The notes: generated by a model not told the origin, from the letters alone. Positions 1-22,834 are shown, counted from the first letter of the stretch. The stretch: DNA of 64,000 nt from Desulfobacterales bacterium (GCA_028704555.1 JAQWFD010000007.1:10764-74763); one strand, 5' to 3'. Made by a program: numbers and translations.

Positions 1-763
1 CTTTCTGGTCCAGGGTTCGCATAAACGCGGCGGTGGTAATGCTCAGATCCCGGAATTCCTCCATATCCAGATAGACAAATTTGGAAACTGGATTGCCGTC
101 TTTGGGCGTAAACACATGCTCGGATGCGGTCTGATACAGGAGGGATAACCGGCGGCAGAGAATCTCGACGGCATGGTTAAACGCCAGGGAATGAATCTGA
201 GAGTATATGGTAGAAATTTTAACGGATACGGTTTCAATATCAGGGTCCTTCAGATCGTGGATATAGTCTTGAATCCTTCGGAACGCTTCGTCTTCTCCCA
301 ATACCGCCTCACCCAGATGATTGATGTTCATCTTAAGTCCCTGGCGTTTTCGCTTCCTGAGATGTGCATGAAAAAAGTCACTTTCTCCGGGAACAATCAT
401 CCGGCTGCTGTATTGCCTCATTTTGTCGATTATTACGGGAATCACAATTTTCGGAAGATGTCTGCCAAAGGCCAGAAACAGATACAGAAGAATTTTTTCA
501 ACCGGATAGAAAAAATCGGGGATTCCATAGCGGCTAAACAGGTGATGAAGATTGCGGGCCGTTCGTTTCGCGTTTTTGCTGCGAAAGCTCTGATCGATGA
601 GACGGGTTAATGTGACCTTGTCTGCCGGATGTGACAGGAGCCTGCTGAGCTGTTTCTGGTATCTTTTTTCAAAAGGCGTAATCAATTCATTGGCCCGTTT
701 CTGCCAGGATTCGGCCAGCTCTATGGTATCTTTCAGCAGAGAATGATCATTTGCCGGATTCAT
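1..763 (-). CDS. proline dehydrogenase / PutA-family enzyme, N-terminal part (partial, continues past window start)
   Basis: Absent from the ORF track because it has no stop inside the window. My minus-strand translation from ATG (rc of 761-763) reads MNPANDHSLLKDTIELAESWQKRANE...NINHLGEAVLGEDEAFRRIQDYI...VSVKISTIYSQI...FVYLDMEEFRDLSITTAAFMRTLDQK with no stop down to position 1. The LGEA, VKxS and LDMEE motifs fit the proline dehydrogenase domain of long PutA enzymes. Confidence 0.65.
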   Translation of the reverse strand, partial: MNPANDHSLLKDTIELAESWQKRANELITPFEKRYQKQLSRLLSHPADKVTLTRLIDQSFRSKNAKRTARNLHHLFSRYGIPDFFYPVEKILLYLFLAFGRHLPKIVIPVIIDKMRQYSSRMIVPGESDFFHAHLRKRKRQGLKMNINHLGEAVLGEDEAFRRIQDYIHDLKDPDIETVSVKISTIYSQIHSLAFNHAVEILCRRLSLLYQTASEHVFTPKDGNPVSKFVYLDMEEFRDLSITTAAFMRTLDQK

Positions 764-857
764 ATGATTATTCCTTATTTAAAGGTGCTTTCAGATGACA
801 GAAGACAGATGATACGTATCATGCATGTTGACTCACGACTCACAACCCACAACTGAT

Positions 858-2354
858 CTACACCCGTTCATAGATATGAGTCATTTCAAGCAGCATATCG
901 ATGGTCTCCGGGGTAATCTGATCGGAGCAAAGGCGCCATTGCCAGTTGCCGGTTTTCCGTGCGGGTTGATTCATTCGGGCATGGGTTCCCATTCCCAGAA
1001 TATCCTGCATGGGGATAATTGACAGGTCAGCAGTCGACATCATGGCCATCCGGATCATTTCACGGTGAATTTCCTCTACAGGCACTTTTCTTCCGAGGTA
1101 GCGATACAGGTTCAGCCGCTGGAGGCTGTTTTCCGGATCTTCAAACCAGCCCCTGACGGTATCGTTGTCATGGGTTCCTGTATAGACTACGCAGTGCTTC
1201 GGAAGGTTGTGCGGCATATAAGCACTGGCAGGAAAATCATCTCCAAATGCAAATTCGAGAATTTTCATGCCCGGGAATCCAAACTGATGCATGAGTTCCC
1301 GGACATCAGCGGTGATGGTCCCCAGATCTTCGGCAATCACGGGCAGACAGGGAAAGATTCGGATCAGCTGATTGAAAAAATCAATTCCCGGCGTGTCAAC
1401 CCATTTCCCGTTTTGGGCCGTTAATTCACTGGCGGGGACTTCCCAGCAGGCGCAGAATCCGCGGAAATGATCAATCCTGATCCGATCATATAATGCCAGA
1501 TTGTGACGTATCCGGTGAATCCACCAGCTGTACCCGAGTTGTATCAGTGCCGTCCAGTTATAAACCGGATGGCCCCACAGCTGACCGGTCCGGCTGAAAT
1601 AATCCGGCGGCACGCCGGATACGGCTATCGGCTTTTTGTGTTCGTCCAGCTTGAATATGTCCGGATGAATCCACAGATCCGCACTGTCATATGGCATGTA
1701 AATGGGGATATCTCCCAGCAGTTGAATGCGTTTGAGGTTGCAGTATCGTTTCAGACGGGTCCATTGCAGATGAAACATATACTGGAAAAATTTTTCCCTG
1801 TTTAAAGCGTCCGCCAGTTTGATTGCGGCTACCTCAAGAGAGCCGGGAAGTCGGTCACGAAGCGGAGCCGGCCACTCAGCCCATATTTTACCCCGGAAAT
1901 GAGATCGCAGAACAGTAAACAGCGAAAAATCATCCAGCCAGCCGGCATGATATCGGCAGAAGCGGTCAAAATCCGCATGGCTTTCCAGGGTTTTAAACCG
2001 TTCGTAAGCCAGTTCAAGAAGGTGTTTCTTAAACGAGACCGTCTTTTTGAAATCAACCCGGTCCTTTGGAAATTGCGGACGGGAATCAAGCTCTGATTGT
2101 TTGAGCAGTCCGTCTCTGACCAGAAACTCCGGGCTGATGAGCAGCTCATTGCCCGCGAAGGCTGACGTGCTGTAATACGGCGAGCAGCCATGAACAACCT
2201 CAACGGGATTCAGCGGCAGGAGCTGCCAGACGCTCTGGCGCGTTTGAGCCAGAAAATCGGCAAACCCATAGGCTCCCGGCCCCAGATCCCCGATTCCAAA
2301 GTCAGAAGGCAGAGACGTAATATGCAGAAGAATGCCGCTGGATCTTTTTGTCAT
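858..2354 (-). CDS. malQ: 4-alpha-glucanotransferase (amylomaltase, GH77)
   Basis: 498 aa. N-terminus RSSGILLHITSLPSDFGIGDLGPGAYGFADFL, plus the full-length GH77 pattern (YYSTSAFAGNELLISPE, HDNDT). Confidence 0.9.
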   Translation of the reverse strand: MTKRSSGILLHITSLPSDFGIGDLGPGAYGFADFLAQTRQSVWQLLPLNPVEVVHGCSPYYSTSAFAGNELLISPEFLVRDGLLKQSELDSRPQFPKDRVDFKKTVSFKKHLLELAYERFKTLESHADFDRFCRYHAGWLDDFSLFTVLRSHFRGKIWAEWPAPLRDRLPGSLEVAAIKLADALNREKFFQYMFHLQWTRLKRYCNLKRIQLLGDIPIYMPYDSADLWIHPDIFKLDEHKKPIAVSGVPPDYFSRTGQLWGHPVYNWTALIQLGYSWWIHRIRHNLALYDRIRIDHFRGFCACWEVPASELTAQNGKWVDTPGIDFFNQLIRIFPCLPVIAEDLGTITADVRELMHQFGFPGMKILEFAFGDDFPASAYMPHNLPKHCVVYTGTHDNDTVRGWFEDPENSLQRLNLYRYLGRKVPVEEIHREMIRMAMMSTADLSIIPMQDILGMGTHARMNQPARKTGNWQWRLCSDQITPETIDMLLEMTHIYERV

Positions 2355-2378
2355 TCACTGTCCTTGTCAGTCAGATGC

Positions 2379-2504
2379 GTCGTGAGTCTCAACAGTCGTG
2401 AGTCAAAAGATAAAGTCGTGAGTCACTAAAGTCGTGAGTCTCAACAGTCGTGAGTTGAGAGTTGAGAGTCTTCTGCCCTCTGACTTCTGTGCCCTTAACC
2501 CTCC
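2379..2504. repeat. intergenic short-repeat spacer (GTCGTGAGTC word x5, TTGAGAG x2, CTGCCCT and CCCTTAA units)
   Basis: GTCGTGAGTC starts at 2379, 2395, 2415, 2431 and 2447. It is followed by gagttgagagttgagag, ctgccctctgac and gcccttaaccctcc. The spacer lies between the treY stop and the malQ start. Confidence 0.8.
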
Positions 2505-2538
2505 GAGCTTTTCTACGCTTTTAACTCAGCACTCAGTC

Positions 2539-5331
2539 CTATTCCCTTTCCCCTGCCATCATCGCCACCGGAAACCGGTCCAGAATATCGCCGATAAAAA
2601 ACCGCTCATGGAGGCGAACCGGCTCGCCAGTCAATACATTGATCCACCGGGATGGCGCTTCCGGGGGCAGCATGATCTGCGTATCGTGCCAGACCTTTCG
2701 GCCAAGCGGATGCTGGGCCTCTTTTATCAGGGAAGTGAAAAATCTGGGGGCGATGGTCATGCACCACTGATCTTCCCAGACACGGATGTAGGCGATGATA
2801 TGATCTTTCAGTGTGCCGGATGCATACAACGGCATGTAACTGCGGCTCTGAAATGTGGTATGGTGCTTTCTGCGGGCCTCAAGGGCTTTTACTGTCAGAA
2901 AGCATTTGATCTCTCCGTTTTCTCTGGATGTCAGCAGGTCGGTCAGCAAAGAGGCGATATCGGTGCGTTCTTTTTCCCGGATCGCCCGCAGGCAGGCTTT
3001 CCGAGCCTTAAAATCAACGGGTTTTCGGTTGTCCGGATCGGTCAGGTTCAGGTCCCACAGTTCCGTACCCTGATAAAAATCCGGGATGCCCGGCGCTGTA
3101 ATTTTGATCAATACCTGTGAAAGTGAATTCCATATGCCGTAACCGGCCACCTTCCTGAAAAACGGATGAAAATGTTTCATAAATCCGTTGCCGGGCCTAT
3201 CCGTCAGAAGCCTGTCGATAAACTCCGTGCAGGCTGATTCATAAGATAAATCCGGATCAAACCATGAAGAGTGCACCTTCGCCTCTCTGAGCGATTTCAC
3301 CATATGCGCTTTGATCCGATGAGCGAAGGTGGACGGGTGGCTTCCGTCAAACGGAAAGGAGCCGATCAGGGTCTGATAAAGGTAGTATTCCTCATTGGGG
3401 TCCGGTGCCGGAACCCCGTTTTTTATGATTTTTTTATCCCTGTTCAGTCCGGACCAGATTTTGAGCGTACTTTCCCACTCGTGCGGGATTTCCGACAGGA
3501 CGTTGAGCCGGGACCGGACATCTTCACCCCGTTTGGTATCATGTGTAGCGGTGGCGTTCAGGCAATGGGGCCATTGATCCGCCCGATGCCGCATAGCATC
3601 ATGAAATAAATCCGGATTGCTGCCGAACCGGGCAGGGGCGGTACCCACATCGTTGAGCGACAGCAGGCGGTTGTACTGATAAAAGGCCGTATCTTCAAGC
3701 CCTTTGGCCATCACGGGAGCCATCATCTGCTGGAATTTCATGACAAATGTAAGGCATTTTTCCGTTGGGTCATGAAACCCTTTTAACCCCGATACCATCA
3801 TGGCCAAGATAAATTCAAGTTCACGCCTGAGTCCCGGCCGGTTTTCAATGGCTGTGGCAGCAGCAGATTGAAGATGGTCACGATCGATCGGGCTGCAGCC
3901 CCGGGCGGATATGAAGGTTCTGTATACCGGAAAGCAGGTCAGCAATTCTCTCAGAGCGGATCTTAACCGGTGGAACGTGAAATCTTTGCCGTGGCGGTAA
4001 CCAGCCGCGATATTTTTGAGCAGGAAGGATATATTATTCAGATCACCCGCCATTTCTTCTTCCATGAACCGTTTTTTTGATTGATGGACGAGGTCCGGCC
4101 ATGGGGTGATGTTTCCTGTAAATTCCTGATATATACGGGTAAATTCCGGAGCGGTATCGGTCCGGCAGAAGATCGAATTCACGTGGCCCAAAAAGTCATA
4201 GCCGGTAGTGCCCTGGACAGGCCATGACAAAGGAAGCTTCTCGGTGGCGCCGAGAATTTTTTCGACCACGATGAACCTGTCCCCGACACGTTCAGCAAGG
4301 TGCTTCAGGTATGCCTCCGGATCATAAAGCCCGTCAATATGGTCAATTCTTAATCCGGATATCCTCCCGGATTCGATCAGCTGAAGAACCAGTTTGTGAA
4401 CATGGTTGAATACTTCCTCCTTCTCTGTTCTCCAGCAGATCAATTCATTGATGCTGAAAAATCGGCGATAGTTGATTTCATCCGCAGCTGTTTTCCAGTA
4501 AGACAGACGAAACCGCTGAGATCCCAGAAGCTCATCAAGCCCGGAATAACTTTCCGGTGAATCCTGACTGCCGTTAAAGCGATCGACACCGGTGTCAATG
4601 ATGCTGCGGATAACCGGATTGCGGTTGTATATATTCCATAACGTTTTTTTTATATAGTGGCACTGTCGTCTGCGCAGTTTTATAAACGGGGACAACGATA
4701 AGGATGCGATATGAACCGAAGCGTTTCGCAGCCGGATCATGTCCGGATGGTCCGCAGGGATCCGGCTTTTGCATGCTTCACGTATCGGTTTAAGTATCAT
4801 TCCATAAGATTCTATGGATACAGGGAATATGAATTTATGATAATGGACTGAAAATCCGTTTGGACCATAAATCAGCCGAATCAGCCCTTTTTCAAGTTCA
4901 TCACCAAAATGCCCGCCGGCAAATGGCGCCAGCACTTTCTGATTCAGATCCCGGCAGGGATGGTTCCACAGGATATCAAAAAAACCGGCATAGTCTGAAG
5001 CCATGCCGTTTTCCAGAACATCCATGAGCAGGGCGTTATCCGGATCAAAGGCGGTATGGTTCGGAACGATATCCTGAACCCATCCCATTTGATTGAGGTT
5101 GATTTCATCTGCCAGTCGTTCGAATGTTTCAGCAGAACCCAGTTCAGGATTGATCTGATTTGGATCAATGATATCGTAGCCATGCTGCGATCCCTTTCTG
5201 GACTTGAAAATGGGAGACGCGTAAATATCTGTCATATTCAGATCCGACAAATAGGAAATGACACCGGCCGCCGAATTAAAATCAAACTGCTCGTTGAACT
5301 GAAGCCTGTAAGTGGCAATCGGAATTCTCAT
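2539..5331 (-). CDS. treY: malto-oligosyltrehalose synthase
   Basis: 930 aa. N-terminus MRIPIATYRLQFNEQFDFNSAAGVISYLSDLNMTDIYASPIFKSRKGSQHGYDIIDP is the classic TreY signature. Confidence 0.9.
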   Translation of the reverse strand: MRIPIATYRLQFNEQFDFNSAAGVISYLSDLNMTDIYASPIFKSRKGSQHGYDIIDPNQINPELGSAETFERLADEINLNQMGWVQDIVPNHTAFDPDNALLMDVLENGMASDYAGFFDILWNHPCRDLNQKVLAPFAGGHFGDELEKGLIRLIYGPNGFSVHYHKFIFPVSIESYGMILKPIREACKSRIPADHPDMIRLRNASVHIASLSLSPFIKLRRRQCHYIKKTLWNIYNRNPVIRSIIDTGVDRFNGSQDSPESYSGLDELLGSQRFRLSYWKTAADEINYRRFFSINELICWRTEKEEVFNHVHKLVLQLIESGRISGLRIDHIDGLYDPEAYLKHLAERVGDRFIVVEKILGATEKLPLSWPVQGTTGYDFLGHVNSIFCRTDTAPEFTRIYQEFTGNITPWPDLVHQSKKRFMEEEMAGDLNNISFLLKNIAAGYRHGKDFTFHRLRSALRELLTCFPVYRTFISARGCSPIDRDHLQSAAATAIENRPGLRRELEFILAMMVSGLKGFHDPTEKCLTFVMKFQQMMAPVMAKGLEDTAFYQYNRLLSLNDVGTAPARFGSNPDLFHDAMRHRADQWPHCLNATATHDTKRGEDVRSRLNVLSEIPHEWESTLKIWSGLNRDKKIIKNGVPAPDPNEEYYLYQTLIGSFPFDGSHPSTFAHRIKAHMVKSLREAKVHSSWFDPDLSYESACTEFIDRLLTDRPGNGFMKHFHPFFRKVAGYGIWNSLSQVLIKITAPGIPDFYQGTELWDLNLTDPDNRKPVDFKARKACLRAIREKERTDIASLLTDLLTSRENGEIKCFLTVKALEARRKHHTTFQSRSYMPLYASGTLKDHIIAYIRVWEDQWCMTIAPRFFTSLIKEAQHPLGRKVWHDTQIMLPPEAPSRWINVLTGEPVRLHERFFIGDILDRFPVAMMAGERE

Positions 5332-5398
5332 CGTATTAATCCGCAGTCATGAGTCGTGAGTCCGCAGTCGTCTGCCATCTGACCTCTGCCCTCCGTCC
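5332..5398. repeat. 67-bp spacer in continuous 7-nt register
   Basis: The minus (sense) strand reads GGACGGA GGGCAGA GGTCAGA TGGCAGA CGACTGC GGACTCA CGACTCA TGACTGC GGATTAA. This fills the gap between the GH57 stop (5399-5401) and the treY start (5331). Confidence 0.75.
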
Positions 5399-7846
5399 TC
5401 ATTCTTCGATATAAAATGACAGATTCCTGCCCACGGCGATAAAATGCTCAACCCACCGGCCAGCGGCTTCATCTTTTTGTTGAGCCTTGTTCTTCATTTC
5501 CGGATAGGTATCGGTCATGATGGTATTGAACATGTTTTGAATTTTTCTCAGATTCACGTTAAATGGAAGTATCTTCAGGAGATTGACTGCGGATTCCTGT
5601 TTTTCAAGGGCCGAAAAATCTAAGGGCTGCTTAGAAAATGAATCGGCAATCAGTTCAAGCGATTGCCGCAATGCATATTCAAGTGTCAGCGAATCCAGGG
5701 GAACGCCGATCATTCCGGCTTCATCCAGGTGACTTTTTATCTGATATTCCTCAAAATTTTCATTTTGAAATGCTTTTAGAAGGTGAAAATTCAGATAAAA
5801 TTCTGCTGATTTGTACAGACTGTCCGGAATAGGTATATTTATATTTTTCAGAAATCGCAGCATGGCGGCATTGCTTTCGTATATCTGCTGGAAGGCATTT
5901 TGTGCTTCATCTAAGGCCGGCTGCATGATTTGATCCAGAATTTTACGTTGTTCATCGTGGAATATAGTTTGAAGCGAATAGATGGATGTGCCGAAATAGT
6001 TATTCATTAACTGAAGCGTTTTTGGAAAATCCGCTTCGGAAAAGGCCTGAGAGATGGTTTCCTTCATTGACTCGTAATTTTCATCGGATTGAAATTCATG
6101 GGAACCGCAGGTAAGGGTATGTTTGCCCAGATGAAGCACGGCAAAACACAGCCGGACAGATTCGTTTATAATTTCCGATGTGATACGAATTCGTCCTGTC
6201 AGCAGCTTTGATCTGCCAATCGTATGGATCTGGTAATCTTCCCTGTCTGCGGTGTAGCAAAAGATGGATGCCTGATCGGCATATTGCTCGAATATCGAAC
6301 TCATGGCATAATGGGCTCCCACTTTTTTTAAATCCACCATAGACGGTATGATAAATTTTTCGTATATGAGTCGACCATTTCCATGTTCAGGAAAATTGCT
6401 CATTGCTTCTTCCAATTTTGTCAGAAAGTTTGTTTCTATGGAATTTCCAAACAACTCTTTGTAAATCTGGATGGCCCGTCCGGCGTATTGAATGATTTGT
6501 ACGGTTTCGATACCGGAGATTTCATCGAAGAACCAGCCGCAGCTGGTGAACATCAGCATGGCATTTCTCTGAAGTTCCATGAGCTTCAACACCGTGTTTA
6601 TTTCGGGAGGCTCCAGTTTTCTTACCGCATGACTGGAAAGAAACGCTTCGATCGTATCATTGGACCGGGGGGACCGGTTCAGGGACCGGTTCAGCAGGAT
6701 CTGGATATAATCATTGCGTGCGGTAACCGGATTTTTCAGAAGTTGTTGCGCCTTTTCCATATATGGGGGTGACAGTTGATCCCGGAGCCAGTTCAGGGAT
6801 GCCCGAAGCGGCGCACGCCATGACTGGTTCCAGTCCGGATGTCCTCCGGTACAGCATCCGCAGTTGCTTTTCCATCGCTCAATTCCGTGAGGACAGCTCC
6901 AGGAGGAATTTTCCACCAGTTGAACGTCATAAGCCGGTGGGTGCTTTTCCAGAAATTCGCCATAATTGGTTAACGATACCGATGTCTGGGATTCGATGAA
7001 GTTCAGCGCAAAGGCAAGTCCTTTGTCGCCACCCTGATAATGATGGCCATAGGTTTCTCCGTCTGTGGCGATATGGACCAGCCCGGAGCTGGTCTCGTCC
7101 GAAAAGCCGTTCAGGAGCATTTCGGCAAACTTTTTCCCATTCTGCATCAGTCCCTTGTATGCGACGGCATGCGATATTTCCGCGTCGTAAAAAAAGATGG
7201 ATATGGTTTTGCCGGATGGCAGCCGGGCGTTATAGGCCATGGTGGTATCGATCGTGTCAGGTGCTGCATCTGACCAGATGCCTTTATCCGAGGGTTTTAT
7301 CCGGGCAGCCTGATGCGGGGCGAGGATCGTAAACCGGATACCCAGTTCGACCATCATATCCAGGGATTCGAGATCAACCGCTGTCTCCGGCAGCCACATT
7401 CCCTCGGGTTTCCGGTTGAACCGGTGGGTGAAATCCTGGATTCCCCAGTATATCTGGGTATATTTATCCGCGGGATTGGCCAGAGGAAGAATCATATGGT
7501 TATACGGTTGAGCCAGCGCGGAACCGTGCCCTGAAAAAAATTGCCGGCTTTCAACATCCGCTGTTAAAATGGCATTATAGACGTCCGGTGCTTCATGTTC
7601 CAGCCAGGTCAGCAATGTGGGTCCGAAATTAAAGCTGATTCTGGAATAGTTATTCACGATTTTCAGAATCTGATTTTTCTGGTTTAAAATCCGGGAGGTG
7701 GCGTTGGTTGCATAACATTCAGCCGTAATCCGGTGATTCCAGTCATGGTATGGATATGCCGAGTCCTGGAGTTCTACGGCTTCCAGCCATGGATTTTCAC
7801 GGGGCGGCTGGTAAAAATGTCCGTGAATACAGATATATTTGTTCAT
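5399..7846 (-). CDS. GH57-family glycoside hydrolase with long C-terminal extension
   Basis: The sequence MNKYICIHGHFYQPPRENPWLEAVELQDSAYPYHDWNHRITAECY is typical of GH57. I chose the start at Met34 of the tracked ORF (ATG rc 7844-7846), 5 nt after the treZ stop. The upstream extension overlaps treZ. Confidence 0.8.
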   Translation of the reverse strand: MNKYICIHGHFYQPPRENPWLEAVELQDSAYPYHDWNHRITAECYATNATSRILNQKNQILKIVNNYSRISFNFGPTLLTWLEHEAPDVYNAILTADVESRQFFSGHGSALAQPYNHMILPLANPADKYTQIYWGIQDFTHRFNRKPEGMWLPETAVDLESLDMMVELGIRFTILAPHQAARIKPSDKGIWSDAAPDTIDTTMAYNARLPSGKTISIFFYDAEISHAVAYKGLMQNGKKFAEMLLNGFSDETSSGLVHIATDGETYGHHYQGGDKGLAFALNFIESQTSVSLTNYGEFLEKHPPAYDVQLVENSSWSCPHGIERWKSNCGCCTGGHPDWNQSWRAPLRASLNWLRDQLSPPYMEKAQQLLKNPVTARNDYIQILLNRSLNRSPRSNDTIEAFLSSHAVRKLEPPEINTVLKLMELQRNAMLMFTSCGWFFDEISGIETVQIIQYAGRAIQIYKELFGNSIETNFLTKLEEAMSNFPEHGNGRLIYEKFIIPSMVDLKKVGAHYAMSSIFEQYADQASIFCYTADREDYQIHTIGRSKLLTGRIRITSEIINESVRLCFAVLHLGKHTLTCGSHEFQSDENYESMKETISQAFSEADFPKTLQLMNNYFGTSIYSLQTIFHDEQRKILDQIMQPALDEAQNAFQQIYESNAAMLRFLKNINIPIPDSLYKSAEFYLNFHLLKAFQNENFEEYQIKSHLDEAGMIGVPLDSLTLEYALRQSLELIADSFSKQPLDFSALEKQESAVNLLKILPFNVNLRKIQNMFNTIMTDTYPEMKNKAQQKDEAAGRWVEHFIAVGRNLSFYIEE

Positions 7847-7850
7847 CTGT

Positions 7851-9749
7851 CTATCTCTCCTCTGTTTGAGTCTCGCCCGTTTGAATTTCCCCCGTGTGAA
7901 TCTGATTGGCCAGTTCGTTATCCAGGGTAAACAGAAGCACCGCATGCGGTGCTGAAGTTAGCGTTATCAGTCCTTCTGACAGGATTTGAGGTGGAATTGT
8001 GCTTCCGGGACCATTCCATTGCAGCTCTGTCGAATCCAGCCGTTTATCCCATTGGCCCGGAATCCCTCTTATTTCGAATTCGGCCGGTTCACTGTTAAAA
8101 TGATACAGCAGCAGGGCATGGCTGGAACCATTCCAGCGATGAACCGTCAGTGTGTGCCGGTTTTCATTTGCGGTTACCGTCATCTGATCTTTATTCAGAC
8201 AGGCCAGAGCAGGGATTGTTTTCCGCAGGTGTATCAGATAGCGGTAAAACTCAAACAATACCCGGTGATGGCCTTGGTGTCGAAGGCCATGATTGAGTTT
8301 GCACTGTAAAAAGGTGGAGATATCCTGAGGGTCCGGAGGAACCCCCTGCCATTGAAAAGCGGCAAACTCCTTTTCGCGTCCCTTGCGGACAGCTTCAATC
8401 AATGCGGGATCAGAATGGCTGATAAAGTACTGAAAGGGAGCCGGCTCCCCGTATTCCTCACCCATGAACAGCAGGGGAATAAACGGGGACAGCAGGGCCA
8501 GGGCCGCTGACAGTTTCAGGACTTCAAATGAAACCTGAGCGGATAAGCGCTCACCCATCATCCGGTTACCCACCTGATCATGATTCTGTATAAATACGAT
8601 CAGGCGGTCAGCGGTCAGTTGCCGTGAGGAATTTCCGTGTCTGCGATTTCGATAGAACGAATATTGTCCGGAATAAACAAATCCTTCCCGACAGGCTTTG
8701 GCCAGGTGATCCAATGTTCCGAAATCCTGAAAGTAGCCGGTTTTTTCTCCGGTTACCAGGCTGTGGACGCTGTGGTGGAAATCTTCATTCCACTGGGCAT
8801 CCAGATCATAGCCTCCAAGATATTCCGGGCGTACTATTTTTGTATCGTTGAGATCGCTTTCCGCAATCGTGTAGACGCGCCGGTTCAGGCTTTCTGACAG
8901 GCGGTGGACGGTTTCCGACAGCTCCAGGAGAAACGGACGGGCGGAAAAATCCATGATGGCATGAACCGCATCGATTCTCAGTGCGTCAATATGACAGTCG
9001 TGAATCCAGTAGATCGCATTTTCAATAAAAAACCGGCGGACATGGTCATTTCCCCGGTCATCGAAGTTCATGGCCGGTCCCCACGGGGTTGAATATACAT
9101 CGGTGAAATAAGGGCCAAACTTGCTGAAATAATTCCCCTCGGGCCCGAGATGATTGTAGACGACATCCAGAACAACGGCCAGTCCTTTGCGATGACAGGC
9201 GTTGACCAGATTTTTTAATCCGGTCGGACCCCCGTAGGAATGCTGAATCGCAAACGGATAGGCCGGATCATACCCCCAGTTTCGATCCCCCGGAAACTGG
9301 GCAACCGGCATCAGTTCGATGGCGGTAATTCCCAGATCTTTGAGTGTGTCCAGCCAGGGGATAACGGCTCCGAATGTCCCTTCCGGGGTAAAGGTGCCGA
9401 CATGCAGCTCATACAAAATGTACCGGCTCAGACAGATGCCGGACCAGTGGCTGTCATTCCATGAAAATACGGAGGGTATGATTTCCGAAGGGCCATGCAC
9501 GCCTTCGGGCTGGTATCGAGATGCAGGATCGGGCCACGGCCCCCCGTCATCCAGTTGATAAAAGTACCGGGTTCCGGGACCTGTGCCATCGATAATACCA
9601 GAATGGTAGCCATCGGCATTTTTTTTTAACGCCTCGCTCCGGTTTTCAGGATACACGATATGGACATTCACCTGCCGGGCAAAAGGTGCCCACACGATAA
9701 ACCGGCATCGGTTCAGTCCCAGAAAGGTGGCGCCCAGTTTTGTATTCAT
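7851..9749 (-). CDS. treZ: malto-oligosyltrehalose trehalohydrolase (GH13)
   Basis: Supported by GATFLG..CRFIVWAPFARQVNVHIV, the GH13 core (DVVYNHLGPEGNY, LRIDAVHAI, QNHDQVGNR) and its position with treY. The start is uncertain: 9749 (MNTKLGATF) or an upstream GTG at 9785. Confidence 0.85.
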   Translation of the reverse strand: MNTKLGATFLGLNRCRFIVWAPFARQVNVHIVYPENRSEALKKNADGYHSGIIDGTGPGTRYFYQLDDGGPWPDPASRYQPEGVHGPSEIIPSVFSWNDSHWSGICLSRYILYELHVGTFTPEGTFGAVIPWLDTLKDLGITAIELMPVAQFPGDRNWGYDPAYPFAIQHSYGGPTGLKNLVNACHRKGLAVVLDVVYNHLGPEGNYFSKFGPYFTDVYSTPWGPAMNFDDRGNDHVRRFFIENAIYWIHDCHIDALRIDAVHAIMDFSARPFLLELSETVHRLSESLNRRVYTIAESDLNDTKIVRPEYLGGYDLDAQWNEDFHHSVHSLVTGEKTGYFQDFGTLDHLAKACREGFVYSGQYSFYRNRRHGNSSRQLTADRLIVFIQNHDQVGNRMMGERLSAQVSFEVLKLSAALALLSPFIPLLFMGEEYGEPAPFQYFISHSDPALIEAVRKGREKEFAAFQWQGVPPDPQDISTFLQCKLNHGLRHQGHHRVLFEFYRYLIHLRKTIPALACLNKDQMTVTANENRHTLTVHRWNGSSHALLLYHFNSEPAEFEIRGIPGQWDKRLDSTELQWNGPGSTIPPQILSEGLITLTSAPHAVLLFTLDNELANQIHTGEIQTGETQTEER

Positions 9750-9780
9750 CCATAAACCCCATCGACCAGAGTCGATTCCC

Positions 9781-9822
9781 TGCACCTTATACCCTGCACC
9801 TTATACCCTATACCCTATACCT
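9781..9822. repeat. tandem repeat TGCACCTTATACCC x2 then TATACCC x2
   Basis: Read directly at 9781-9822. On the minus (sense) strand this gives GGGTATA units just downstream of the treT stop. Confidence 0.8.
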
Positions 9823-9836
9823 TTCATCCTGTTTTT

Positions 9837-11096
9837 TTACCGGTCCATTTTACAAAACAATTCAATCCGATCCCGGGTACCACGAATGACTGCCAGCATT
9901 AAAGACAGGTATTCGCGAAGATGACGTGTCAGGAGAAAATTTTCTCTGACGTAGGTTCTGGCTTTGGCGCCCATTTCATCCAGTTTCTCCCGGTTGTTGA
10001 GCAGATAACGGATGCGAAGTGCAGCCCCTTCCGGCGTATTGACCAGAAATCCGGTATGATTGTCGATCACCTGCCGGCGAATACCGCCGGTATTCCCTCC
10101 GATAACCGGTTTGCCTTTCCACATGGCTTCGGTAACGGTCAGTCCGAATCCTTCTTTGAGCGATTTTTGAAGCGATATATCGGCGATGCGCTGGAGGGCG
10201 TTGATGGTGCGATGGGCATCGGACGGAAGCAGCAGCACGTGAATATCCGGATCATCCTGAGCAATGCTTTTGACCTCGGACAGGACTTCTTCGCCTTCGG
10301 GGTCATCCGAAGCGCCTCCGCCGGCCAGCACCAGCTGCAGACGCGGATTGAACTCTTTGGCCAGCCGATAGGAACGGATGACGCCGACCGGGTCCTTGAA
10401 ACGATCAAATCTGGAGACCTGAACGAGTATGGGCCGTTCTCTGTCCAATCCGTATGTGGTGCAGACTGTATCGATTTCTTCGGGACATAACTCGGCGTTT
10501 TTATCACTTAACGGATCGATGCTCGGCGGTATGATGTATAACGGATGGGGCATGGGACGGGCAAAATCGGGCAGGGACCAGATGCTCGCGTCATATCCTA
10601 ATATGTACTGTCTTAAATATTTCCAGACGGGGCGGTGAGGGCGGCTGGCATCGATATGACACCGCCATATCCATTTGCCTTTCCGGTTGCTGCACAGGTT
10701 GAGCAGCGGTGCGGGTTGCGGATCATGGATAACTACGATATCGGCATCCTCCAGATCATTTCGGAGTTTTTCAAAATTGGTTTGATTCGTATGCTCGTAG
10801 GCGGTTAGCAGCGATTGCGATATGTCCTCACGGGTTCCCTGAAGTCCATTGTGCATTTTTTTGGTGCACTGGTAAAAATCCGATTCACCGGTGATGACGT
10901 GCCAGATCGCATTCAAGCCGAGTTCCTGCTTCAGGGGAATCAGATTATGCAGTATCTCAGCCACGCCCCCGCCTTCTTTGGTGGAATTGACATGGACCAC
11001 CTTGATGCCTTTGAGCGATTCAGCCACCTGCCTCAGATGATTGATAACGTCAGTGCCGGCGACCATTGCATAGTTGTCAAGTTTACTGGCCATCAT
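9837..11096 (-). CDS. treT: trehalose synthase, TreT-type GT4 glycosyltransferase
   Basis: 419 aa. [48 protein letters not shown] and [20 protein letters not shown] closely track my memory of archaeal/Thermotoga TreT. The assignment is from memory only. Confidence 0.7.
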
Positions 11097-11755
11097 GCCT
11101 CCCTTTTGTTAAAATAGGCATATAAAATAGTGACAAGCTGGTTGCGTAATTCCGTCAGGCTGTTAAAATATGGATCAATAGCAGCGATATCATCGGCAAG
11201 GGTTGTAAATTGGCCATCGATTCCTCTCAACCATTCTGAAAAATCATTTTCTCCTGAAACGGTTCTCCGGCGGGAGTCAATAAAATGGTAGAAAATACTG
11301 CTGGAAGACATTTTGCTGACGGTTTCGGGCAATTTTTCCGGATTGCTGATACGAATACACGTATCAAATACGATGATTTGAGAACGGAGCAGAAAAAACG
11401 GATGATCCACATGAATCCAGGGATTGAAGTCTTCCTCATCCATTCGATCCTCGATGACATCTATGACTTTCCGGCGCAGATCATCCATGCGGCTAAAGTC
11501 CGTCGGGTTCAGTATGGCCAGCCTTTCGGCCAGGCGATGGTCATGGAGATCATTCCAGGCCCAGGCAGCAAAATCATTCTGATACTCCCGATCGACAAAA
11601 CGCGGACGCAGCAGTGTGTCCCAGAAATGATAATACATGATTCCGAAATCGTCATTGGCTGTCAAACGGTCCTGTAATTCTCTCAGGGTGTGGGCTTTTT
11701 CACCTGTTGCGATGGCGAGCAGAGCACAATCCAGCACACCAAACGGATTGGCCAT
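11093..11755 (-). CDS. conserved hypothetical protein translationally coupled to treT (DUF5752-like, from memory)
   Basis: 220-aa ORF whose TGA overlaps the treT ATG in an ATGA overlap at 11093-11096. It has no enzymatic motif I recognise. Confidence 0.45.
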
Positions 11756-11957
11756 GGTCCTCTCCTTTCATGATTACGATTGATGAAGAATGTTACTAAG
11801 ATACGTGAAGACTTGCTGTTGCCGTGATATTATGCCGAGACGAGAAACGTTCAGTTGTCAGGTAATTTTACATAATCATCATATAAAGCCTGCGATATCT
11901 TTTCAAGAAAAACCTTTCTCCTGACCAGGGCAACGATTATTTTAAAAGGAACCTTTC

Positions 11958-13544
11958 ATGAATATTTTGATAATGGCATCGGAAAATGACGGTATCAAAG
12001 GCGGCAAGGTCGGTGGCCTGGGCGATGTGATCAGGGATGTTCCGCCGGCCCTTGCAGCACGTGGCCATATGGTGCATGTGGTGACGCCTTCATATGGCTT
12101 TTTGCATCGGATCAACGATTCCAGGCAAACCGGGACCGTCGGGTTCATGTTCTCCGGTCGGTTTCATGAAGCGGATCTGTATGAGGTTCAAGGGAAAAAC
12201 CACCATTCCCACATTCGCCTTTCGGTTATTGAACATCCCGTTTTTGCTTCCCAAGACAATCGGGGGGATCATTCGTTTTATTCTTTTGACCCGCCGGATC
12301 GTCCCTTTGCATCGGATGCGACGAAATTTGCGCTTTTCTGCATGGCAATCGCAAAAGCGGTTACAGATGGCGTGTTTGGCCGTTTGGACTGCATTCATCT
12401 GCATGACTGGCACATGGGTTTTTTCCTTATCCTGAGGGCATTTCATCCGGAGATGAAAGGGCTTCAACAGATTCGAAGTGTTTTCAGCATTCATAACCTG
12501 GCTCTCCAGGGAATTCGCCCGTTTCGCAACAGTGATTCATCGCTGGAAGCATGGTATCCAGGGCTCGGTTACAATCCGGATCTTCTTTCCGACCCCCGGT
12601 GGCGGAATTGCGTGAATCCAATGGCGTCGGCTATTCGATTAGCGGATGCAGTGCACACGGTTTCTCCTGCCTATGCCGATGAAATTCTTCATCCCAGCAG
12701 GCAGCCCATGTTTTACGGTGGGGAAGGACTTGAAGCCGATCTGGTGCAAGCCAGGGACAAGCACCGCCTGTCTGGTATTCTCAATGGCTGTGCTTATCCG
12801 GAATCGCACCAGCCTGCCAGGATGAAGTGGCAGGCGCTGCTGAAATTGCTGTCCAACGCTGTTATTCAATGGTGCGGGAAAAGCCATACGGTTCCGGCAG
12901 CCCATTTTATTGCCTGTGAACGGCTCAAACAGCTTGAGCGATTATCCCAAAAGCCGGATATGGTGATGACAACGGTCAGCCGGGTCGTTGAACAGAAACT
13001 GTATTTGATGAAAGCGCCCGGATCTGTTCAGATGACGGGTCAGATGTCCGGTCTGGACCAACTCCTGAGAGATATCGAAGGCCATGGCGTCTATCTGTTT
13101 CTTGGCGCCGGTGACCCGGAATATGAATGGTTTTTGACACAGATGAGTTCCCGGTACCGTCATTTTGTGTTTTTAAACGGGTATTCGGAGGATTGCGCAC
13201 AGGCGTTATACGCAAACGGGGATCTTTTTGTTATGCCCAGCAGTTTTGAACCCTGCGGAATCAGCCAGATGCTGGCCATGCGTGACGGCCAGCCCTGCCT
13301 CGTCCATAATGTGGGGGGGTTAAAAGATACGGTTCAACACGGATACAATGGGTTTGTTTTCAATGGGAACACTGTCATCGAGATGGTGGATGATTTTATC
13401 AGGACAGGCAGGGAAGCAGCTGAAATAAAACTGAATGCCCCGGATAAATGGAAGAAAATATGCCGCCAGGCATCGGATTGCCGATTTCTGTGGGATGACT
13501 CGATTGGGCAATATGTTAAGGGACTGTATGAGGGGAAGGGATAG
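11958..13544 (+). CDS. glgA: glycogen/starch synthase (GT5)
   Basis: MNILIMASENDGIKGGKVGGLGDVIRDVPPALAARGH carries the K-x-GGL-x-DV motif. The C-terminal SSFEPCGISQM matches GT5/GT-B. Confidence 0.85.
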   Translation: MNILIMASENDGIKGGKVGGLGDVIRDVPPALAARGHMVHVVTPSYGFLHRINDSRQTGTVGFMFSGRFHEADLYEVQGKNHHSHIRLSVIEHPVFASQDNRGDHSFYSFDPPDRPFASDATKFALFCMAIAKAVTDGVFGRLDCIHLHDWHMGFFLILRAFHPEMKGLQQIRSVFSIHNLALQGIRPFRNSDSSLEAWYPGLGYNPDLLSDPRWRNCVNPMASAIRLADAVHTVSPAYADEILHPSRQPMFYGGEGLEADLVQARDKHRLSGILNGCAYPESHQPARMKWQALLKLLSNAVIQWCGKSHTVPAAHFIACERLKQLERLSQKPDMVMTTVSRVVEQKLYLMKAPGSVQMTGQMSGLDQLLRDIEGHGVYLFLGAGDPEYEWFLTQMSSRYRHFVFLNGYSEDCAQALYANGDLFVMPSSFEPCGISQMLAMRDGQPCLVHNVGGLKDTVQHGYNGFVFNGNTVIEMVDDFIRTGREAAEIKLNAPDKWKKICRQASDCRFLWDDSIGQYVKGLYEGKG

Positions 13545-13697
13545 TAGGGAGTAGGGAGTAGGGAGTAGGGAGTAGGGAGAGAAAGATAGGGGGCGGGTAA
13601 AAGAGTATAAGGTTTAGGGTACAGGGATAAAGGGGAAAGTGGTCTGTATTTCTGCCTACTCCCTACTGCTTACTCTGCCCTCTGCCCTCCGTCCCCC
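13545..13697. repeat. (TAGGGAG)x5 run plus inverted heptamer units between convergent genes
   Basis: TAGGGAG occurs five times in exact tandem at 13545-13579, starting on the base after the glgA TAG. The inverted copy CTACTCCCTAC lies at 13656-13666. TCTGCCC units at 13671-13690 run up to the kinase stop. Confidence 0.85.
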
Positions 13698-16532
13698 TTA
13701 ACTTATTTTTTTAAGCAATTCGAGCGCTTCATCGTACTCATAATCATGAATATGTCTTTCGAGAGCCTGCCGGTTCGGTGGGTCAAAAAACGGGCTGACC
13801 GATTTTAAATGGCGGTAGACACCGATTGGATCATAATGAATCAGGGCGTCGGTCAACAATTGCAGTTCGGGCTTGACATCGTTGCTCTCGTCCGGTTCAA
13901 TCTTTTCAACCGGGCTCTCGGTCAGTGTCTGCAAAGACGACAGAACCTGATTCAGCTTCTGTATCAGCGGGTCAATCAGGCTGGCATCCGGTGCTTCAGT
14001 GTCGTTTACGGTGGCGCTCTCAAGATCGTATGCGGCAGCGCGCAGGGGTTCGGCGCAAATATTGGCGGCACTTCCTTTGAGACTGTGGGCGATCAGATGA
14101 AGCTGCTTCCAGTCGTTTTTTTCAACACAGTCTTTTATTCTTTCTCCGGTTTGCAGATTGCTCTGATGAAATCCGGTCAGGATTCGTCTGAATATATCCG
14201 GGGCAATATTCAAGGCGGACAAAGCGCTTTGGATATCAATTCCGGGCAGTGTTGCGGGTAAAATATCTACAGAGCGCTGTTTCTTTTCATCCGGGTGCTC
14301 AAATTCAAGGGCAGGCTTGTCCGCCTCTGCGGGAGGCTCAACGGCCTTATATCGTTCGATGGCTTTCCAGAGAATCTGATACAGCCTGTCCTGACGGATG
14401 GGTTTGGAAATGTATGCGTCCATTCCCGCTTCAAGGCATTGTTTTTCAATGTCTTTTGTGGTGTCAGCCGTCATGGCGATGATCGGAAGATTTTTTAATT
14501 CCGGATTGTTACGAATCGTGAGGGTAGCCTCGTACCCGTCCATATCCGGCAGCTGAATGTCCATAAATACGGCATCGAAATCATGTTGTTTCAAGGCATT
14601 TAAGGCTTCAGTACCGTTTTTCGCAATGTGTACCGTAACACGAGCGGTTTCAAGCAGGACCTTTGCAATTTCCCGACTGGTTTCGTCGTCTTCAACAAGT
14701 AATACACGCAATCCTTTCAGTCTGTGTTGATTCAGAGCGGAGCGGCTCTTAACGGATGTCTGTCGGACCGGATATCGGAATACCTGTTTTCCGAATGCAT
14801 CCATGATTGCGTTAAACACGGCGGCGGGTGACATCGGTTTCATCAGAAAACCGTTGATCCCCGTTTTTACGGTATCCATTTTTTCATTTTCAATACCGTA
14901 TACGGACATGAGTATAATTGGAATGTCCAGCTGTAAATCCTGTCTGATTTTTTTCGATGTCTCTATTCCGTTCATATCCGGCATGTTGAAATCTATCATG
15001 ATCAGCGAAAAGGGGACTTCCGTACTTTGGGTGCCTTTGAGCATGTCCAGTGCGTCAATTCCGGATGACACGGCTGTCACATGGAATCTGAAAAATTCGA
15101 GGTACTTTCGGATGATATCCCGGCTGTCCGGGCAGTCATCAACGACCATTACCTTAAAGCCATCCATCTCATCAGGTACCGTTATCACCGGATATTCGAC
15201 CTCCGGCTGCAAATCAAATTCTGCGGTAAATGAAAATGTACTGCCTTTTCCCGGCTGGCTTTGAACCTGAATATCTCCATTCATCAGCCTGGCCACTTGA
15301 CTGCTGATACTCAGGCCGAGACCGGCCCCCTCATATTTGCGTGTGGTGGAAATATCCTCCTGTGTGAATGGTTTAAACAGCATTTGCTGATGCTTTTCAG
15401 ATATACCGATTCCGGTATCTTTCACAATAAATGATAATTGGATCCGGTTGGCGGACAGCTCCGATGCGGTTACACTGATCAGGATCATACCGTTGTTCGG
15501 AGTAAATTTTAAGGCGTTTCCGACCAGATTGTATAAAATCTGCTGAAGCCGGAGAGCATCTCCAATCAAAGCTTTTGGCATTTCCGGATCAATATCGGTG
15601 AGAAATTCGATTTGTTTTACCGCCGCTTTGCTGACAAACGTATTGGTAACCCGGTCAAGTATGTCATCGAGCCGGAACGGTTTGATGCTCAGAGCCAGTC
15701 TGCCGGCTTCGATTTTTGAAAAATCGAGAATGTCATTGATAATTCCGAGCAGGGAGCTGGCCGAGGCATGAATGATTTTCAGATAATGTTTTACTTTCGG
15801 CGAAATGGCCTCGCTCTGTGCCAGTTCAGCAGCTGCAATGACCCCATTCATGGGGGTTCGGATTTCATGGCTCATATTGGTTATAAAAGCGCTTTTTGCC
15901 CGGGTTGCGACCTCGGCCTCCTTTTTTGCCTGTTGAAGCTCTATCTCCATCTGAACCCGGTCGGTAATGTCCCTGCCTTCCGGTATCAGATATTCAATAT
16001 CGCCGGCAGGGTTTTTTACGGGTTTGAGTGAAAAGTCAAAATGATGCCATTGCCCGTCCGCGGTGGGATGAATCGATTCAAAACGGATAAATTCACCAGC
16101 GGCCGCTTTTGTTATGGCATCCTGAAGCCGGATCTGAAGATCCGGAGAATGGCTCCACCATGGGGTTTCCCATAAAAGTTTTCCTTTTATATCGGATTCG
16201 CGGACGCCGATGGCATCCAGAGCCGTCTGGTTGGCGGTTATGATCGTACCGTCGGGTGTCAGAAGGCCGATAAATTGAAATGTCTGATTGAATATGGTGT
16301 TCAGCTTTTTTTCATTTTCCTGTAACTGCTGTTTCATCATCCGGAAGTCAGATTTTTTTTTGAGAAGGAGCGTGGTGGCTCTGTTTAACTGGGCGGATCG
16401 TTTTTCGGCTAACTGTTCAAGCTGATCCCGGTGCTCCATCAGTTTTTTGTTTTGATGACAGAGGCGGGTTGTCTTTGACTCGAATTGTCTGATCCGCCGG
16501 ACCAGATTATCGTAAGTCCGTTGATCGTTCAT
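13698..16532 (-). CDS. hybrid sensor histidine kinase/response regulator (coiled coil, PAS, HisKA, HATPase, REC, REC, HPt)
   Basis: 944 aa. H-box SHEIRTPMNG, a G-box (GAGLGLSIS), two receiver domains (VMVVDDCPDS, VLLVEDDETS) and a C-terminal HPt-like HSLKGSAANI. Confidence 0.85.
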   Translation of the reverse strand: MNDQRTYDNLVRRIRQFESKTTRLCHQNKKLMEHRDQLEQLAEKRSAQLNRATTLLLKKKSDFRMMKQQLQENEKKLNTIFNQTFQFIGLLTPDGTIITANQTALDAIGVRESDIKGKLLWETPWWSHSPDLQIRLQDAITKAAAGEFIRFESIHPTADGQWHHFDFSLKPVKNPAGDIEYLIPEGRDITDRVQMEIELQQAKKEAEVATRAKSAFITNMSHEIRTPMNGVIAAAELAQSEAISPKVKHYLKIIHASASSLLGIINDILDFSKIEAGRLALSIKPFRLDDILDRVTNTFVSKAAVKQIEFLTDIDPEMPKALIGDALRLQQILYNLVGNALKFTPNNGMILISVTASELSANRIQLSFIVKDTGIGISEKHQQMLFKPFTQEDISTTRKYEGAGLGLSISSQVARLMNGDIQVQSQPGKGSTFSFTAEFDLQPEVEYPVITVPDEMDGFKVMVVDDCPDSRDIIRKYLEFFRFHVTAVSSGIDALDMLKGTQSTEVPFSLIMIDFNMPDMNGIETSKKIRQDLQLDIPIILMSVYGIENEKMDTVKTGINGFLMKPMSPAAVFNAIMDAFGKQVFRYPVRQTSVKSRSALNQHRLKGLRVLLVEDDETSREIAKVLLETARVTVHIAKNGTEALNALKQHDFDAVFMDIQLPDMDGYEATLTIRNNPELKNLPIIAMTADTTKDIEKQCLEAGMDAYISKPIRQDRLYQILWKAIERYKAVEPPAEADKPALEFEHPDEKKQRSVDILPATLPGIDIQSALSALNIAPDIFRRILTGFHQSNLQTGERIKDCVEKNDWKQLHLIAHSLKGSAANICAEPLRAAAYDLESATVNDTEAPDASLIDPLIQKLNQVLSSLQTLTESPVEKIEPDESNDVKPELQLLTDALIHYDPIGVYRHLKSVSPFFDPPNRQALERHIHDYEYDEALELLKKIS

Positions 16533-17845: not shown

Positions 17846-17849
17846 GACC

Positions 17850-19061: not shown

Positions 19062-19110
19062 ACGGATTTTTGTGCGAACCCTTGGCCTGAAGATACAGGA
19101 GTAAAAACAT

Positions 19111-22744: not shown

Positions 22745-22834
22745 GATTTACTCACGACTTACGGACTTACGGACTCACGACTCAAGACTCAAGACTCAAG
22801 ACTCACGACTGATAACCCATAACAGATAACCCAT
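22745..22834. repeat. heptamer-repeat spacer (GACTCAC/GACTCAA x5, GACTGAT, AACCCAT, AACAGAT, AACCCAT)
   Basis: Read directly. GACTCAC at 22772, GACTCAA x3, GACTCAC at 22800, then GATAACCCATAACAGATAACCCAT ending 7 nt before the ATG at 22841. Confidence 0.8.

Follow-up and report, generated by a model that had tools for sequence, protein, structure and literature searches.

Strand-polar heptamer arrays at the gene boundaries of a Desulfobacterales bacterium

How can short tandem repeats lying between genes be oriented as if they knew on which side the nearest gene lies? This question is raised by a 64,000-nt stretch of a Desulfobacterales bacterium genome (GCA_028704555.1, JAQWFD010000007.1:10764-74763; hereafter the window, with positions counted from its first letter), in which several spacers are built from repeated 7-nt words. 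An initial annotation of this DNA had named eight such spacers, claimed that GGG-containing words follow stop codons while CCC-containing words precede start codons, and suggested a function in termination, insulation or mRNA processing rather than random slippage. We found that the orientation is indeed consistent and non-random: the bias holds for 14 of 14 repeat blocks in the window and extends to 289 arrays elsewhere.

Arrays were detected over the whole window with Tandem Repeats Finder (TRF) and with a self-match scan for periods 4-12. TRF arrays of period 7, or of 14, 16 or 21 nt as heptamer composites, lie at 2379-2469, 5367-5400, 9778-9823, 13543-13591, 13673-13689, 22750-22834, 47172-47415, 60613-60630, 63517-63541 and 831-854, with 2.4-11.8 copies. 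Every place named by the initial annotation as dominated by 7-nt words carries such an array; the one at 831-854 was absent from its list. In the self-match scan, period 7 accounts for six near-perfect segments (173 nt) and each of the periods 4-6 and 8-12 for none or one. When spacers of at least 40 nt were scored for 7-nt periodicity, as had been suggested, 9 of 34 proved strongly 7-periodic, with lag-7 identities of 0.41-0.61 or 0.43-0.66 (z vs shuffles 3.8-11.9 or 3.8-14.6), and the remaining 25 stayed near 0.25. A few words, with their point variants, recur at many junctions and are common to several spacers: GTGAGTC, GGGCAGA, AGTAGGG, GGGTTAA, ATAGGGT and GGGTTAT. The 10-mer GTCGTGAGTC, allowing one mismatch, has 32 sites vs 2.0 expected, 31 of them in spacers. 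In the 67-nt treY/GH57 spacer (5332-5398; lag-7 identity 0.60) the 7-nt register is, as had been claimed, unbroken from stop to start, and nine consecutive units share it: GGACGGA GGGCAGA GGTCAGA TGGCAGA CGACTGC GGACTCA CGACTCA TGACTGC GGATTAA. These are heptanucleotide simple-sequence-repeat (SSR) arrays of the kind known as long simple sequence repeats (LSSR) or cyanobacterial short tandemly repeated repetitive (STRR) sequences.

A further 13 kb of flanking sequence, taken from public copies of the locus, holds no more intergenic arrays. Two metagenome-assembled genomes (MAGs), GCA_028701075.1 and GCA_028684125.1, matched via malQ and batA, are identical to the window and show no variation. 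Public short-read contigs, from the window organism and from many others, end exactly at heptamer arrays, one of them at 63541-63543. Because the arrays break assemblies in this way, they are probably under-counted in MAGs.

Once the blocks were mapped on the open reading frames (ORFs), one rule described them all: read 5'->3', the G-rich strand leads away from whichever ORF is nearest. On the plus strand, a block is G-rich if its nearest ORF lies to the left and C-rich if it lies to the right, and in the window this is the same for stop and start ends and for ORFs on either strand. On the mRNA sense strand, G-type words stand no more than about 15 nt past stops and C-type words about 6-40 nt ahead of starts, and where two arrays occupy one spacer the G-array comes first, then the C-array. 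The earlier stop and start assignments (8 of 8) and 10-mer orientations (6 of 6) agree with the ORF map, the 10-mer reading GTCGTGAGTC when stop-proximal and GACTCACGAC when start-proximal on the sense strand. Only the wording has to change: an array between co-directional genes is both past a stop and ahead of a start, so that "follows" and "precedes" really mean "nearer to".

Replication direction is not the cause of this pattern, because blocks occur in both orientations (six G-rich and eight C-rich on the plus strand) despite a GC skew that is positive throughout the window; Rehm et al. (2015; PMC4692102) likewise found no leading- or lagging-strand bias in the repeats discussed below. We also rejected a fixed cassette of a G-type array followed by a GACTCAC array, used in either orientation: it is contradicted by spacer 22750-22834 and by single arrays in other phyla, and the nearest-ORF rule fits all of these.

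Does the rule hold outside this genome? Scanning one genome per species for (GACTCAC)3 gave at least 120 loci, with Chloroflexota, Gemmatimonadota, Bacteroidota, Acidobacteriota, Actinomycetota, Halomonas, Vulcanimicrobiota, cyanobacteria and others among the matches listed; a metagenome scan for (GGGCAGA)3 gave 120 loci and three viral-contig scans gave 31. Pooled, the matches listed yield 289 heptamer arrays lying between genes, in genomes unrelated to this one, in metagenomes and in viral contigs. In this set, the strand pointing outward from the ORF has more G than C in 92 vs 5 arrays within 15 nt of a stop (p ~1e-21) and in 41 vs 9 within 40 nt of a start (p ~6e-6); with each distinct word counted once, the ratios are 45:7 and 26:2. 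The orientation tally that the initial annotation had proposed for its own genome was thus run on arrays outside it, and the bias is present there. It is confined to the ends of genes. At stops it drops from 92:5 within 15 nt to 15:10 at 16-40 nt, with no bias farther away; at starts it is 35:4 at 6-40 nt and 19:10 at 41-100 nt, with no bias beyond 100 nt. A/T skew has no polarity in the 289 arrays. Whatever the heptamer word, the polarity follows its G-minus-C skew, and words unable to form a G-quadruplex (G4) are no exception.

Among the matches listed, arrays seeded on (GACTCAC)3 follow the rule 54:19 and the other words at those loci 49:17. Co-directional spacers read GACTCAC on the sense strand in 25 cases vs GTGAGTC in 24, i.e. 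there is no bias by transcription direction alone, and 13 of 14 arrays in convergent spacers lie nearer to the gene whose sense strand reads GTGAGTC. In viral contigs, GACTCAC has 4 loci, fewer than either of two scrambled words matched to it in composition (15 and 12 loci); we do not claim that it is over-represented. Some genomes of distant phyla each gave, among the matches listed, 5-9 separate (GACTCAC)3 loci (e.g. JAXLWN01 Chloroflexia, CAYNFH01 Chthonomonadaceae, DATCMP01 Thermomicrobiales and JBEHWP01 Vulcanimicrobiota). They also hold the one-mismatch kin GTGAATC, GTAAGTC, TTGAGTC and GTGGGTC, which suggests that word repertoires are genome-specific yet overlap between phyla.

Could the rule be a product of chance or of the way ORFs are defined, G-rich words containing stops at which ORFs merely end? 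GTGAGTC contains TGA and 7 mod 3 = 1, so that the word places a stop in each of the three frames and any array overlapping a stop necessarily has that orientation (30:0 G-type among the matches listed). GACTCAC-seeded arrays inside ORFs, moreover, occur among the matches listed only in the stop-free orientation. Against this, arrays strictly 1-15 nt past a stop are still G-type 24:1 among the matches listed, words without a stop codon on either strand give 40:7 at stops, the stop-free word GGGCAGA gives 17:0 at 1-15 nt past stops, and the Xanthomonas word GGGAATC is stop-free in either orientation. Array-free flanks at the same loci are unbiased (308:259 and 323:325). We regard this artefact as refuted, with next to no probability left to it. 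The unbiased flanks also led us to reject the idea that arrays inherit a local compositional skew. Mimicry of stop codons, start codons or Shine-Dalgarno (SD) motifs was rejected as a general cause as well, since words lacking those triplets or 4-mers keep the polarity: besides the stop-free words, those without a start-codon triplet on either strand give 16:4 at starts and those without an SD 4-mer 29:4.

As for the arrays that do lie inside genes, about 20 (GACTCAC)n-seeded ones, among the matches listed, are deep within long ORFs, where they would encode a DSRLTTH-type heptapeptide repeat. GGGCAGA is found within ORFs in both orientations (14:16).

A polarity of this kind has been described before. 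Rehm et al. (2015; PMC4692102) reported heptamer repeats, GGGAATC in a pair of Xanthomonas genomes and GGGGA(C/T)T in Anabaena/Nostoc, dispersed and about 90% intergenic, whose G-rich strand is the coding strand up to 50 bp past stops and the non-coding strand up to 50 bp ahead of starts; many form convergent inverted pairs, and at the same junctions they vary in sequence and length between close relatives. The window arrays resemble them in being 7-nt tandem repeats that are intergenic, polar near stops and starts, and strain-variable, and in including a convergent inverted pair (13543-13591 with 13652-13697). Unlike them, they come from another phylum (a Desulfobacterota-like MAG), use several words rather than one, and keep the same polarity with GTGAGTC and many other G4-incapable words. 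Since the polarity was already published, the pattern in the window is a rediscovery in a new lineage: the arrays belong to the polar heptameric SSR class of Rehm et al., for which G4 potential is not required.

Rehm et al. identified no function and read their repeats as G4-forming elements (PMC4692102), a reading in which the G4 fold of the G-rich strand, as DNA or RNA, would be what is positioned. In vitro formation was shown for GGGAATC/GGGGAYT repeats with the same polarity (PMC4692102), and the window has canonical motifs in (AGTAGGG)5 at 13532-13577 and (GGGTTAA)4 at 47178-47201. These are, however, only 2 of the 14 blocks; as a group the arrays do not match the G4-forming class of at least four units each with a tract of three or more G. 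The commonest word, GTGAGTC, is without a G run, and words lacking any GG or CC dinucleotide keep the polarity, at 55:6 for stops and 25:3 for starts. As a general cause, G4 folding is thus largely refuted and we hold it to be very improbable.

What, then, is the origin of the arrays? In Desulfobacter latus the gene string DUF5752, treT, treZ, GH57, treY, malQ has junctions of 23, 8, 3 and -4 nt, and a second relative, syntenic over a wider stretch, has spacers of 21-63 nt with lag-7 identities of 0.21-0.35, i.e. background. The corresponding junctions of the window are 51, 67, 184 and 94 nt long and consist largely or wholly of heptamers. Because the orthologous junctions are tight and repeat-free, the arrays are lineage-specific insertions into a formerly compact trehalose/glycogen operon. 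Comparison of the genomes thus shows them as recent additions that inflated tight operon junctions.

The arrays are also still changing. Over 6 kb, a second strain found in other samples shares 98.3% identity with the window, and an array-free 202-nt spacer (11756-11957) is identical in both. Between the two strains, the GH57/treY spacer differs by 1 substitution and the treY/malQ spacer by a 9-nt indel inside the repeats, and the glgA/kinase spacer is rearranged at both edges with a conserved centre. The malQ/putA spacer differs in length, at 94 vs 277 nt, and in its words: the longer version carries AGTAGGT-type words and GGGGTTAAGGGG past the stop, and TCTGCCT, TCTGTAA and TCTGTCC ahead of the start. 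Polarity is kept in every one of these differences. Such indels, unit shuffling and wholesale replacement at 98.3% identity mean that slippage-type instability clearly generates the arrays, contrary to the initial annotation, which had set function against random slippage; it is the filter on orientation that is left to explain.

This turnover reaches into coding sequence. The glgA stop (13542-13544) lies inside the (AGTAGGG) array, and the enzyme has 528 aa in the window vs 526 aa in a 99%-identical strain, where the stop is at 3324-3326. Array turnover that shifts the stop therefore edits the C-terminus of a housekeeping enzyme.

Might the arrays nevertheless be dedicated cis-elements, placed at gene boundaries to end or insulate transcription or to guide the processing of mRNA? 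A transcript would then meet G-rich RNA on leaving an ORF and C-rich RNA on entering one. In favour of this, the orientation rule is very strong and symmetric about ORF ends. In addition, the convergent spacer 13545-13697 has a long predicted hairpin on both strands (z -3.7 and -4.0; (AGTAGGG)n against CCCTACT-type units), as a bidirectional terminator would, and in Xanthomonas RNA-seq showed transcript starts or stops to be more frequent at repeats able to form G4 than at controls (PMC4692102). That hairpin is without a T run, so that it does not match an intrinsic terminator, and the rest of the locus argues against the idea. Of the array spacers, five fall within the gene string DUF5752-treT-treZ-GH57-treY-malQ(-putA), whose members are closely packed in relatives, and the orthologous junctions there are array-free, so that arrays are not needed at these places. 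Within 1-20000, the array spacers show neither a consensus promoter for the downstream gene nor a terminator-like hairpin with a T run, and promoter-like and terminator-like sites are not enriched over shuffles; the 67-nt spacer 5332-5398, being all repeat, has no room for a promoter. Predicted folding of ten spacers left nine without significance vs shuffles, eight at z -0.8 to +2.4 and the malQ/putA spacer of the second strain at -1.9, and Rfam 15 at its gathering score finds two tRNAs in the window and nothing at arrays. A general hairpin structure of the kind formed by repetitive extragenic palindromes (REPs) was rejected on this basis for all spacers but 13545-13697. Rehm et al., too, located most of their repeats within transcripts and saw no effect on regulation (PMC4692102). 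If the arrays terminated transcription strongly, treZ, treY, malQ and putA would be left with no promoter, from which we infer that the arrays are probably transcribed through. The role in termination, insulation or processing put forward by the initial annotation therefore finds no support in the compact, repeat-free orthologous operon and the mostly unstructured operon spacers without promoters or terminators, and we consider dedicated cis-elements unlikely.

To explain these results we propose, with a probability of roughly one half and on sequence comparisons, that slippage-made arrays survive beside an ORF only in the orientation compatible with translation, as transcribed-through filler rather than as dedicated terminators. 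Slipped-strand mispairing would both create the arrays and drive their turnover; the idea in print is that 7 nt is the unit length at which the replicase is prone to slip. Their orientation would then be filtered by selection acting on the transcript, in the zones touched by the terminating and the initiating ribosome. Ahead of a start, only a G-poor, unstructured, pyrimidine-rich copy would be tolerated; directly behind a stop, only a G-rich, C-poor one. The filler would thus carry an orientation-dependent cost. We favour such a filter because the zones of polarity match the footprints of the terminating ribosome (about 15 nt 3' of the stop) and of the initiating 30S subunit with its standby site (about 40 nt 5' of the start).

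Several points weigh against this proposal. We know of no molecular reason why a G-rich trailer should be required over a C-rich one behind a stop. Where one spacer holds a pair of arrays of opposite skew, the order is G-then-C in 35:2 cases, and it is kept even when both arrays lie more than 40 nt from ORFs (7:0, a small sample); together with the 16 of 35 pairs that are inverted copies of one word, this order far from genes hints that polarity is intrinsic to pair formation. The full replacement of words between close strains, with polarity kept, would likewise be easier to explain if the generating process itself were polar. Finally, the gene calls come from our own scorer, and stop-free C-type arrays may be absorbed into 5' extensions of ORFs and so leave the intergenic tally; such absorption cannot touch the convergent spacers (13/14) or stop-free words, and at starts it runs counter to the rule.

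The same facts would suit a polar synthesis, in which G-rich repeats are made onto 3' ends that point into the spacer, so that both sides of a junction receive converging G-strands, through break repair at the gene junction or through fold-back or template switching of a G-rich nascent strand. It would account for a rule that is independent of ORF direction, for the order of the pairs near and far from ORFs and their inverted copies of one word, for spacers made wholly of repeat where the genes of relatives overlap or stand 3-23 nt apart, and for words swapped between close strains with polarity intact; many G-type words are also telomere-like (GGGTTAA, AGTAGGG). However, single arrays more than 40 nt from ORFs have no polarity relative to the nearest ORF, and blocks of point-variant units are the ordinary product of slippage. 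We judge such a synthesis improbable, though it is the chief competitor of the filter. More doubtful still is its broadest form, that bacterial heptamer arrays universally acquire their polarity as they are made, independently of G4, in the manner of a scar of telomere healing. If true, this would explain the independence from ORF direction, the 35:2 pair order, the all-repeat spacers and the replacement of words with polarity retained.

A further alternative invokes Rho. The C-rich, G-poor strand would be a rut-like loading site, kept off the sense RNA behind stops to avoid operon polarity, and positioned to terminate any antisense or untranslated transcript that enters an ORF. The sole compositional predictor is indeed G minus C, with A minus T having no such value, and every C-type word is 43-57% C and 0-14% G. 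Past stops the sense RNA is G-rich in 92 of 97 cases, which does not match rut sites acting on the sense transcript there. Arrays of 3-5 units (21-35 nt) are, on the other hand, below the typical length of a rut site, and convergent gene ends, where termination by Rho is harmless, obey the rule as strictly as operon junctions do (13/14). Cyanobacteria are not known to have Rho. Anabaena is one of them and has the same polarity (PMC4692102). Such a logic is therefore a distinctly remote prospect, and we retain selection in the zones of ribosome contact as our preferred account.

How do the arrays compare with other known repeats? The dispersed imperfect palindromes of enterobacteria known as REPs or bacterial interspersed mosaic elements (BIMEs) act as hairpins and lie past stops in operons and between convergent genes. 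The window arrays are similarly dispersed short repeats placed just past stops and also between convergent genes; unlike REP/BIME, their units are not self-complementary and only spacer 13545-13697 is significantly structured by prediction. Cyanobacterial STRR heptamers were reportedly described by Mazel et al. in 1990. Like LSSR and STRR, the window arrays are head-to-tail 7-nt repeats, mainly intergenic, with reused words and instability between close strains. According to the summary given in PMC4679880, LSSR (5-11 nt) have a sporadic phylogenetic distribution and a non-coding location, and Mrazek et al. (2007) found the heptanucleotide to be the commonest long SSR unit in prokaryotes and proposed polymerase slippage; as far as such summaries go, these surveys differ from our account in reporting no G/C polarity relative to ORF ends.

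The closest parallel for a bias at starts is that of MacGregor (2015; PMC4679880), who described TAACTGA direct repeats in marine Beggiatoaceae, some Cyanobacteria and Bacteroidetes. They stand immediately ahead of starts, often without a canonical ribosome-binding site, point toward the start codon in 147 of 170 sets in a Beggiatoaceae genome, and were proposed to bind S1, Csp or CsrA (PMC4679880). Like the window arrays they are direct heptamer repeats in spacers, strongly biased in how they face the ORFs, but they are without G/C skew and essentially start-associated, whereas the larger class of the window arrays is stop-associated. Tandem TAACTGA is found on neither strand of the window, which has 3 single copies per strand. 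A literature text search for the words GTGAGTC and GACTCAC returned nothing relevant.

Heptamers of the STRR/LSSR type have been known in bacteria since about 1990 with no accepted function. The window extends them to a new phylum and to a case with several words, and our tallies in other genomes show that the polarity already in print does not depend on words forming a G-quadruplex. Any heptamer with a G/C skew has it, across many phyla and viral contigs, within about 15 nt past stops and about 40 nt before starts. This narrows the question to two possibilities: either orientation is selected in the mRNA zones contacted by ribosomes, or the process that makes the repeats is polar. In practice, arrays of this kind break short-read assemblies, move annotated stops and inflate operon spacers, and annotators should recognise them.

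The individual blocks illustrate the rule along the window. Genes were called with a self-trained codon-usage ORF scorer, which reproduced the public gene calls for the window. The names given by the initial annotation are borne out by Pfam, by a malQ look-up and by TreY homologues: Pfam supports GH57, an alpha-amylase (TreZ-like), TreT, GlgA, the hybrid histidine kinase, the CarS-like/metallophosphoesterase fusion, the CBS protein and BatA/BatB; MalQ is a GH77 protein, and TreY is named from homologues, the closest named ones being from Desulfobacter at about 51% identity.

At the left end, the G-type block TCAGATG ACAGAAG ACAGATG (791-811, plus strand) lies 27 nt from the start of a putA-like gene at 763 and reads on the sense (minus) strand as C-type TCTGTCx before that start; in the same spacer, GTTGTGG GTTGTGA GTCGTGA GTC (831-854, minus) stands on the sense strand 3 nt past the malQ (GH77) stop at 858. 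Five copies of GTCGTGAGTC at 16-nt spacing, followed by 2.6 copies of GAGTTGA (2379-2469, G-rich on plus), adjoin the malQ start at 2354, the sense (minus) strand reading GACTCACGAC, and are followed by the G-type run GACTGAGTGCTGAGT ... GGAGGGTTAAGGGCACAGAAGTCAGAGGGCAGA (2472-2538, minus), on the sense strand after the treY stop at 2539. The treY/GH57 spacer holds GCAGTCA TGAGTCG TGAGTCC GCAGTC (5343-5369, G-rich on plus), 11 nt from the treY start at 5331 and reading GACTCACGACTCATGAC in sense, and, in continuous 7-nt register with it, GGACGGAGGGCAGAGGTCAGATGGCAGA (5371-5398, minus) on the sense strand directly past the GH57 stop at 5399. Farther along, GGTATAGGGTATAGGGTATAAGGTGCAGGGTATAAGGTGCAGGG (9778-9823, minus) lies on the sense strand 13-15 nt past the TreT stop at 9837. 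The start of the TreZ-like ORF beside it is uncertain, the maximal ORF being 644 aa vs 614 and 630 aa in orthologues.

In the convergent spacer, (AGTAGGG)5 (13543-13591, plus) overlaps the glgA stop (13542-13544), contains a canonical G4 motif and forms the left arm of a long imperfect hairpin; GGGGGACGGAGGGCAGAGGGCAGAGTAAGCAGTAGGGAGTAGGCAG (13652-13697, minus), directly past the hybrid histidine-kinase stop at 13698, is the right arm, complementary to the (AGTAGGG) arm. The C-type block ACTCACG/ACTCAAG x8.4 then ATAACCC x3.3 (22750-22834, sense on plus) ends 6 nt before the start of the CarS-like/metallophosphoesterase gene at 22841. GGTTAAG x4.5 then ATGGCTA x3 (47172-47244, G-rich on plus) lies 13 nt from the start, at 47158, of an ORF containing selenocysteine (Sec) and reads CCCTTAA on the sense (minus) strand, upstream of the SD AAGGAG; beyond it, a 14-nt unit equal to two heptamers, (TCCAGTCGTGAGTC) x11.8 (47251-47415, minus), lies on the sense strand 14 nt past the stop of the CBS-domain gene at 47430. 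Toward the right end, C-type AACCCTT x2.6 (60613-60630, sense on plus) precedes the batA start at 60645 by 14 nt and sits within the last 8 codons of the upstream ORF 59949-60635 (stop 60633-60635), and (AGTCGTG) x3.6 (63517-63541, sense on plus) lies 5 nt past the stop, at 63511, of the BatB-like VWA/TPR gene.

Some other elements of the window are worth recording. The minus-strand ORF 46592-47158, which has a good SD (AAGGAG) ahead of it, carries a U-x-x-C motif (D-U-I-G-C) whose U is an in-frame TGA, and looks like a thioredoxin-fold selenoprotein; the 150 aa past the TGA gave no Pfam match. An element unrelated to the heptamers and resembling a miniature inverted-repeat transposable element is dispersed at 32365-32420, 36086-36220, 39902-40080, 42787-42938 and 57648-57908. 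It has terminal inverted repeats of the form GGGCTTGATCATAACTGCGGCCA (e.g. 39916-39943 / 40051-40078), at least five copies or fragments in window spacers, and related sequence in a spacer of a relative (14868-15188 there). A 24-nt motif, TTTTGCCTCAAACGAAGTGCTCCT, is found in three spacers, once inverted (25025-25048, 36244-36267 and 63640-63663), and may be a candidate regulator binding site; at the last of these places it overlaps a 17-nt tandem repeat, CCTCAAACGATAGCGCT, at 63645-63683.

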